Assembly (NCBI RefSeq): GCF_003018255.1
Contig: NZ_CP027440.1
Direction: 5' to 3' (one strand)
Length of the DNA stretch: 64,000 nt
Source of the DNA: Escherichia coli
GTDB taxonomy: Bacteria; Pseudomonadota; Gammaproteobacteria; Enterobacterales; Enterobacteriaceae
The position numbers and the translations under genes were made by a program. Every line of letters starts with the position of its first letter. Position 1 is the first letter of the stretch. This document shows positions 16,293-17,048 of this stretch, one piece after another. Under the pieces are notes generated by a model that worked only from the letters and a program-made list of their open reading frames with translations, was not told where the DNA came from and ran no database searches.

Positions 16293-17048
16293 TGTCTATT
16301 CCTCAGTTAATGTCTACATGGCTATGTTTAACGTTATTACTGTTTGTCATTATAAAAAACCGCTCATTTGAGACAATTGCTGACATTAACTGTTTCACTT
16401 GCTACGCATGGACTTTTTAATTAAATTAGCACAAGAATGTTAAATTTAATAAACAAAAAGTTATTTCGCTGTATGATAAAAACCAACCGTTATGATTTAT
16501 TAGTGGAATTCGTTTTTCGAGTGTTAGAAATTTATATCTAAATAGCGTTAATTAATGAGCAAAGCCAGACTCCTGTAACGCTCATAAGACTCATCTGCCT
16601 GCGGCGGGTGTTCTGGTCAGTAGTAGATATTTAAGGCGTGGCAGAGACATTTCATCCTTACTCTACGGCATTGGTCCACATACAAATCGTGGTTGTGACA
16701 CTTCACTTATCATCAGTGAGCGAACAGAGAATAGTTCAGTGATTTGAGTAATTAACCTGATTAAATGAAGAGGCATGATAAATGATAATACTCTGGCTTT
16801 ATCGTTAATTACTTAATTCCACATGTAAGCAATTTGCCCGCTTGGCATAGCGGGCATTTTTTCCAGGTACTTTTGAATGAGTACTGATGGATAAATACAT
16901 TGCAGTGGCGTGCCACGTACCAAAACACCAGCCCTCATTCGAAACCACCCACCGCACTTCTTCCTTTAAATGGCGTTAGTCATGAAATATAGACCGCCAT
17001 CGAGTACCCCTTGTACCCTTAACTCTTCCTGATACATGAATGATGATT

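Follow-up and report, generated by a model that had tools for sequence, protein, structure and literature searches.

A conserved intrinsic terminator beside the tRNA gene ileY in Escherichia and the small plus-strand RNA that it may end

Enterobacterial base-pairing small RNAs (sRNAs) of the Hfq type, which are about 50–250 nt long, have their own promoter, a U-tailed terminator, and an A/U-rich stretch before the terminator hairpin. The 3′ external transcribed spacer (3′ETS) RNAs of tRNA operons, for example, 3′ETS-leuZ, form a second system with which an element beside a tRNA gene can be compared. Here, we examined a hairpin in the spacer between the ypjCB pseudogene and the tRNA gene ileY of E. 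coli, within a 64-kb stretch of genomic DNA (hereafter, the window). In form, the hairpin resembles the intrinsic terminators of E. coli, with a GC-rich 8-bp stem, a 6-nt loop, an adjoining U-tract, and a predicted energy of −15 kcal/mol, which rises to −8.8 when the common allele is present; it differs from them in that neither a gene nor a mapped transcript ends here in K-12 and in that two opposite-strand genes flank it. Because the terminator and the 40 nt preceding it are nearly unchanged in the sister species E. albertii, it probably ends an undescribed small RNA, and we tentatively propose that the hairpin closes a small transcription unit on the plus strand, its product being a candidate sRNA some 67–77 nt long.

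The genes of the window are arranged in the order ssrA (8805–9167, plus strand), ypjA, a pinH remnant, ypjCB, the gap, ileY, and a ygaQ-type amylase gene, and the layout is the same in K-12, where the gap carries no annotation at all (Table 1). The annotated neighbors, ypjCB and ileY, both lie on the minus strand, as a reading of this DNA made from the sequence alone (the sequence-only reading) had stated. In the left part of the spacer, where nucleotide diversity is 0.035–0.093, a TTGTCT-16-TATAAT arrangement is found on the minus strand at 16376–16349. The spacer is bound by H-NS in K-12, and an RpoD SELEX peak within the K-12 gap was assigned to ypjC by the authors of that study; the ypjC promoter string predicted there was not located. 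The ypjCB gene is intact in some strains but a pseudogene in many, the present one included, and its 5′ end (window 16098–16292) reaches a nucleotide diversity of 0.17 among 13 strains. The ygaQ-type amylase gene, a pseudogene in K-12 and several other strains, shares only ~67% DNA identity with the E. albertii gene, far below the neighboring glaH (92%). Furthermore, the ileY gene of the window differs from that of K-12 at five positions, all of which are wobble-compatible stem changes or fall in the variable region. Three of the five lie in the 3′ 46 nt, the part duplicated by integrating elements, suggesting that the ileY polymorphism arose by exchange of att sites.

Table 1. Features of the ypjCB–ileY locus in window coordinates, with stretches of identity to E. 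albertii
Feature	Position	Strand	Remarks
ypjCB pseudogene	~14838–16292	−	
Spacer, ypjCB to ileY	16293–17048		756 bp
Left spacer part	16293–16726	.	E. coli-specific, hypervariable, AT-rich; includes likely ypjCB promoter; outside the conserved element
13-bp inverted repeat TTGAGTAATTAAC / GTTAATTACTTAA	16743–16755 / 16804–16816	+	RNAalifold helix
Second promoter-like site	16752–16779	+	TTAACC-16-TATAAT in K-12-type strains, TTAACC-16-CATGAT in the window
Invariant ATGATAAT	16782–16789	+	GATAAT (16784–16789), −10-like hexamer; putative promoter role
Invariant A/U-rich 39-nt segment	16796–16834	+	Candidate sRNA body or seed; ends AAUUU beside the stem
41-codon ORF overlapping the hairpin	16813–16938	−	Hypothetical in a few genomes; judged no conserved protein gene
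Terminator stem-loop UGCCCGCU-UGGCAU-AGCGGGCA	16835–16856	+	8 bp, 6 G-C pairs, −15.0 kcal/mol
U-tail of terminator, T6	16857–16862	+	Immediately 3′ of the stem
Downstream block	16866–16950	.	86% identity with E. albertii; almost no variation among E. coli
tRNA-Ile(CAU) ileY	17049–17124	−	Convergent with the terminator, 187 nt apart
ygaQ-type amylase gene	17682–19934	+	Intact
Identity to E. albertii	16727–16795		62%
Identity to E. albertii	16796–16865		97%
Identity to E. albertii	16866–16950		86%
Identity to E. albertii	16951–17048		36%
Identity to E. albertii	ileY		93%
Identity to E. albertii	beyond ileY		about 50%

The plus-strand hairpin TGCCCGC-ttggcata-GCGGGCA reaches its full stem length, with G-C pairs at 6 of 8 positions, when the closing U-A pair is counted; its coordinates in the sequence-only reading held for the terminator but were off by 2 nt at the start, the hairpin beginning at 16835. 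Directly 3′ of it stands TTTTTTCC (16857–16864), and the T6 run is shared by E. albertii and every E. coli allele. The predicted energy of −15.0 kcal/mol belongs to the allele with G at position 16852, which the window carries. When a terminator-like site was defined by a stem ≥7 bp long, ≥5 of its pairs being G-C, and by T at 5 of the next 6 positions, a comparable site occurred in 1 of 5,000 dinucleotide shuffles of the 756-bp spacer, and only about seven such sites were found across the whole window. By the criteria of stem-loop and U-run, 16835–16862 is an intrinsic terminator of the working type, and the description of it as a textbook plus-strand terminator was sound. It is also an orphan, as had been claimed: no plus-strand ORF of at least 60 aa ends near the hairpin, and the closest ORFs are of 20–42 aa, none of them ending within 90 nt. 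Of the two strands, only the plus strand has a T-tract after the stem. On the minus-strand side, the stem is followed by AAATTGCTT, and the tail AAAUUGCUU is without a U-tract; because the reverse strand lacks a T-tract, the hairpin is a one-way signal. A role as a bidirectional terminator of ileY was rejected on the same ground and because the ileY transcript ends elsewhere (K-12 Term-seq gives one end at 2785762 and a Rho-dependent one at 2785734, which is 28 nt beyond the tRNA). The window contains a second hairpin, at 7190–7206, which is a perfect palindrome, GGTGCTCA-n-TGAGCACC, with T-runs on both strands and the shape of a bidirectional terminator.

The E. albertii contigs were reached through a protein search with the overlapping minus-strand ORF (a 41-aa “hypothetical protein”). 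Homology between the window and E. albertii runs from about 16705–16727 rightward through ileY, and no homology to E. albertii was found to the left of this boundary. There, the left neighbors are ykgR-ykgM-ykgO, which replace ypjCB; in E. coli, that region maps at 0.31 Mb. At the K-12 hairpin after ykgO, Term-seq places a 3′ end on the ykgL strand (312325, plus strand). In the 860-nt comparison, the top 70-nt stretch was 16795–16864, with 69 of 70 nt identical and its right edge at the T-run; the probability of at most one change in 70 nt is about 3 in 10,000 at a local neutral divergence of 14%, before correction for the choice of window. Within the hairpin, the stems are identical and a single loop position differs (T16843 to C). 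The body and the terminator are conserved beyond their flanks (69/70 vs. 62% and 86%; 93% for ileY). The comparison of homologous regions that had been proposed as a check thus singled out the terminator together with the preceding 40 nt, between flanks that are 36–86% identical. Conservation does not stop sharply at the terminator, in that 16866–16950 is still 86% identical between the species. The carriers are two species, and because only these two have the element, there is no true covariation.

Upstream of the stem, 16796–16834 shows no difference between E. coli and E. albertii, and 16800–16839 has no variable column in 54 unique sequences, in which 20 of the 40 nt were fixed by the search pattern. 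Variation is concentrated further upstream, at 16767–16777. Within the variable 16767–16795, ATGATAAT is the only invariant island, and it lies 6–7 nt before invariance begins. Its hexamer may act as a −10 element; in E. albertii, the arrangement is ATTACA-18-GATAAT (9/12), and the −35 partner of GATAAT is weak. The second promoter-like site scores 10/12 in K-12 and is the top promoter-like site of the K-12 spacer. At its TATAAT position, the window has CATGAT and E. albertii has TACAAA; no single promoter is conserved. In 807 or so of 3,079 genomes, the 56-nt block around this site differs from K-12 by 3–4 nt. Promoter-like hexamers had been reported upstream of the hairpin; this proved correct for K-12, with its TTAACC-16-TATAAT, but in the window no plus-strand sigma-70-like site of at least 9/12 was found within 350 nt upstream. 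The variable promoter-like stretch is bracketed by the 13-bp inverted repeat, in which two one-sided G·U/A-U changes in E. albertii keep the helix, with pairing on the plus strand only. With a transcription start further upstream, the repeat could pair as an RNA helix, the 5′ hairpin of a longer RNA; alternatively, it could be a DNA site.

The terminator site is single-copy and is present in 3,087 of the 5,426 complete E. coli genomes; those without it (e.g., Nissle and BL21) miss the whole ileY locus. Among 13 strains, nucleotide diversity at the locus, including the 5′ end of ypjCB and the tRNA flanks, is 0.03–0.17 per 50 nt, and the low exception is 16790–16939, with values of 0.003, 0.020, and 0. 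In all 3,093 E. coli genomes with the block, 16780–16960 is at least 97.2% identical, and 72 metagenome contigs showed only the same core variants. The hairpin has one common polymorphism, G/A at 16852. The G allele, with a perfect stem, occurs in 1,035 genomes, including this window, and the A allele in ~2,051 (about two-thirds of those with the locus), including K-12 and O157. In the plus-strand stem, A16852 creates a C·A mismatch, which weakens the hairpin from −15.0 to −8.8 kcal/mol; in a minus-strand RNA, it would be a G·U wobble. The presence of G16852 in E. albertii marks the perfect stem as ancestral and the A allele as derived. A16852 was found on all four haplotypes of the promoter region, indicating that the allele is recurrent or has been spread by recombination. 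Two mutations from laboratory evolution also fall in this spacer. In a gallium-adapted population, a G to A change at K-12 2785563 (window 16850), the first base of the 3′ arm of the hairpin, reached 19% (PMC6928379), and in enrofloxacin-adapted lines, a T to C change at K-12 2785462 (window 16749), 3 nt before the TTAACC hexamer, was fixed (PMC6458618).

From these features, we infer transcription of the plus strand from a promoter close to ATGATAAT or to the second site, and possibly a regulatory role for the product. The proposed unit would be self-contained, lying next to ileY with plus-strand transcription of its own. Its RNA would start near 16796 (67 nt) or near 16786 (77 nt) and end at 16862, and it would consist of the 39-nt A/U-rich body, the terminator hairpin, and the U-tail. 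Under laboratory conditions, the unit would probably be silent or very weak, with an H-NS-bound spacer and a promoter and stem that vary among strains. With more reserve, we suggest that the whole is an Escherichia-restricted sRNA gene beside ileY, kept nearly base for base and silenced by H-NS, in which the strengths of promoter and terminator vary between strains. The small-RNA reading, which had been offered as one possibility from the outset, thus gains from the 69/70 conservation and from its onset 7 nt after ATGATAAT, but a transcript end in K-12 did not appear. In the curated Term-seq 3′ ends of K-12 under three conditions, there was none at 27855xx on either strand, contrary to the earlier expectation of plus-strand transcription ending at ~16862. 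This test is weak because the K-12 stem is of the weakened allele and H-NS occupies the spacer; given the weaker stem, the negative result lowers confidence and is not decisive. Similarly, no RNA end was present here among the entries listed for TRS, SMRT-Cappable-seq, and Cappable-seq in K-12, and among the entries of the latter two, no transcription start site was found for the candidate RNA. The element was absent among the entries listed in an RIL-seq-based sRNA prediction and in Hfq CLASH (both K-12). A target search by local duplex scan within the window gave results no better than those of shuffled controls. The A16852 mismatch, evidently tolerated in two-thirds of the genomes, also counts against an sRNA.

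The element is unannotated, and it is absent from Rfam and from the literature searched: an Rfam 15 scan of 14000–20000 (E-value up to 1) gave the tRNA as the sole match, and the element sequence was not found in any of that literature. The suggestion that the terminator serves a short-peptide gene was not borne out. No conserved plus-strand ORF was found around the terminator, because the ATG at 16775 reads ATA in K-12, and the minus-strand ORF shows no constraint at the protein level. A small protein on either strand and a type I toxin-antitoxin pair were therefore rejected, as no ORF is conserved at the protein level.

An alternative that we consider unlikely, although it deserves the most weight among those that remain, is that the hairpin is a relic or insulating terminator without a dedicated RNA. 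It would be the 3′ signal of a plus-strand operon that once lay, or elsewhere still lies, upstream, and in E. coli it would keep stray plus-strand transcription that arises in the AT-rich ypjCB island from running head-on into ileY. In E. albertii, the hairpin lies about 365 nt downstream of a Zur-type paralog operon, ykgM-ykgO, whose transcription runs toward it; between the ykgO stop and ileY, no other canonical intrinsic terminator is predicted on that strand. In K-12, the hairpin that follows ykgO is succeeded by TTTTCC, and its E. albertii homolog is without a T-run; ykgMO there is convergent with ileY. The left neighbors differ in E. coli, so that on this account a rearrangement would have orphaned the terminator, and both the missing K-12 transcript and the tolerance of the weaker A allele would fit. 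However, a pure terminator needs only the stem and the T-tract, yet the 39 nt upstream are invariant and the sequence further upstream is 62% identical; moreover, the homology block begins only about 70–90 nt before the core and has promoter-like elements of its own. The notion that this is the fossil 3′ end of a lost gene has a possible source in ykgM-ykgO, which points at the hairpin in E. albertii, but leaves the invariant 39 nt unexplained.

It is improbable that the conserved sequence has no RNA function at all and represents either a DNA-level site, such as one for protein binding or recombination, or a block that E. coli and E. albertii have in common through recent descent or transfer. 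The distribution of the locus lends this some color, since it is accessory (57% of E. coli) and was not found in GTDB species representatives: a scan for YgaQ proteins in 100,044 species representatives yielded no relatives, and a 20-mer scan of the GTDB species-representative genomes yielded one chance match and one E. coli-like contig in a metagenome-assembled genome. No homolog of the element was found in the phage collection, and the matches in the plasmid collection were only chromosome-sized E. coli records (mislabeled chromosomes). The surrounding DNA is hypervariable and subject to integration events. Indeed, ileY is an active integration site, occupied by a P2-like prophage in strain PRO_A-1496 and, in E. 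albertii and strain GF8, by integrase-bearing islands. The breakpoints of viral contigs fall within the tRNA, at window 17094/95; because the integration junctions lie there, the element is on the resident side and is not part of the mobile elements. The low diversity within E. coli also reaches beyond the core, and some strains carry IS interruptions without obvious cost: IS3 in one strain after the equivalent of window 16848, inside the hairpin loop, IS1 in another near 16785, and IS5 in one that has lost ileY as well. Nevertheless, recent transfer predicts uniformly high identity, in contrast to the 86% and 62% observed right beside the core, and a perfect GC-rich hairpin followed by T6 is an unlikely shape for a neutral remnant. 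The minus-strand motif “DGGLYF..W.R.R..YP” had given the impression of a P4-type integrase remnant, which was rejected, as Pfam, NCBIfam, and PHROGs gave no match and as the scores of tblastn with IntA and of Smith-Waterman alignment with IntA and the GF8 integrase did not exceed those of shuffled sequences.

Least likely of all is an element of the minus strand, in which 16950–16796 would be carried in an RNA from the ileY strand, either as the 3′ trailer of ileY or as a small transcript of its own, possibly with the 41-codon ORF, and the hairpin would stabilize that RNA, not terminate it. On this strand, A16852 would be a benign wobble pair, compared with a mismatch on the plus strand, the fold has a z-score of −4.0, and the conserved 16796–16950 roughly matches ORF 16813–16938 together with a purine-rich GGTGG stretch just upstream. 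The ORF has been annotated by gene callers in a few genomes, and three of the four substitutions seen among E. coli strains are synonymous. Across the two species, however, 9 of the first 25 codons change the residue, and the last 16 codons are nearly identical, silent sites included, apart from a single synonymous change in the loop; this pattern points to constraint on the nucleotides, not on a protein. Pfam, NCBIfam, and PHROGs gave no matches, and longer forms of the frame are broken by a stop in this window and in one more strain and by a frameshift in one strain. Against a minus-strand RNA also stand the absence of a terminator-like end, the Rho-dependent stop of K-12 transcription past ileY just 28 nt after the tRNA, an upstream region (16951–17048), the expected place of a promoter, that is only 36% identical, and the lack of a minus-strand 3′ end at 27855xx in K-12 Term-seq.

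We therefore return to the small plus-strand RNA as the preferred reading. If a transcript is confirmed, a lineage-restricted sRNA would be added to the best-studied bacterium, one that standard K-12 transcriptomics would miss, given the weakened allele of K-12 and the binding of H-NS to the region. If the hairpin is instead a relic of a ykgMO-ileY junction, it would be a clean case of a terminator surviving rearrangement. Either reading is a modest addition and involves no new principle. Furthermore, the G/A stem polymorphism (about 1:2) and the promoter variants would provide a natural allelic series for terminator strength and expression.

Among the described systems, the terminator of ogr, the last gene in a P2-like prophage at ileY, is similar in position, being a plus-strand terminator aimed at the 3′ end of ileY from a distance of ~130–190 nt; it differs in that the window element lies outside such prophages and shares no sequence similarity with it, for which reason homology to the ogr-terminator end was rejected. 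Like the 3′ETS RNAs, the element is a conserved non-coding segment with a strong hairpin downstream of a tRNA gene. In contrast to them, the hairpin stands 187 nt away from the tRNA with its T-tract on the other strand, and K-12 ileY transcription ends by Rho 28 nt after the tRNA. From the Hfq-type sRNAs, the element differs in being absent among the entries listed for K-12 CLASH and RIL-seq-derived prediction, in matching no Rfam family, and in a promoter that is not clearly conserved. It resembles them in its predicted length of 67–77 nt, its six-U terminator, the AAUUU before the stem, a conserved body that looks single-stranded, and an intergenic site near a tRNA gene and horizontally acquired DNA.
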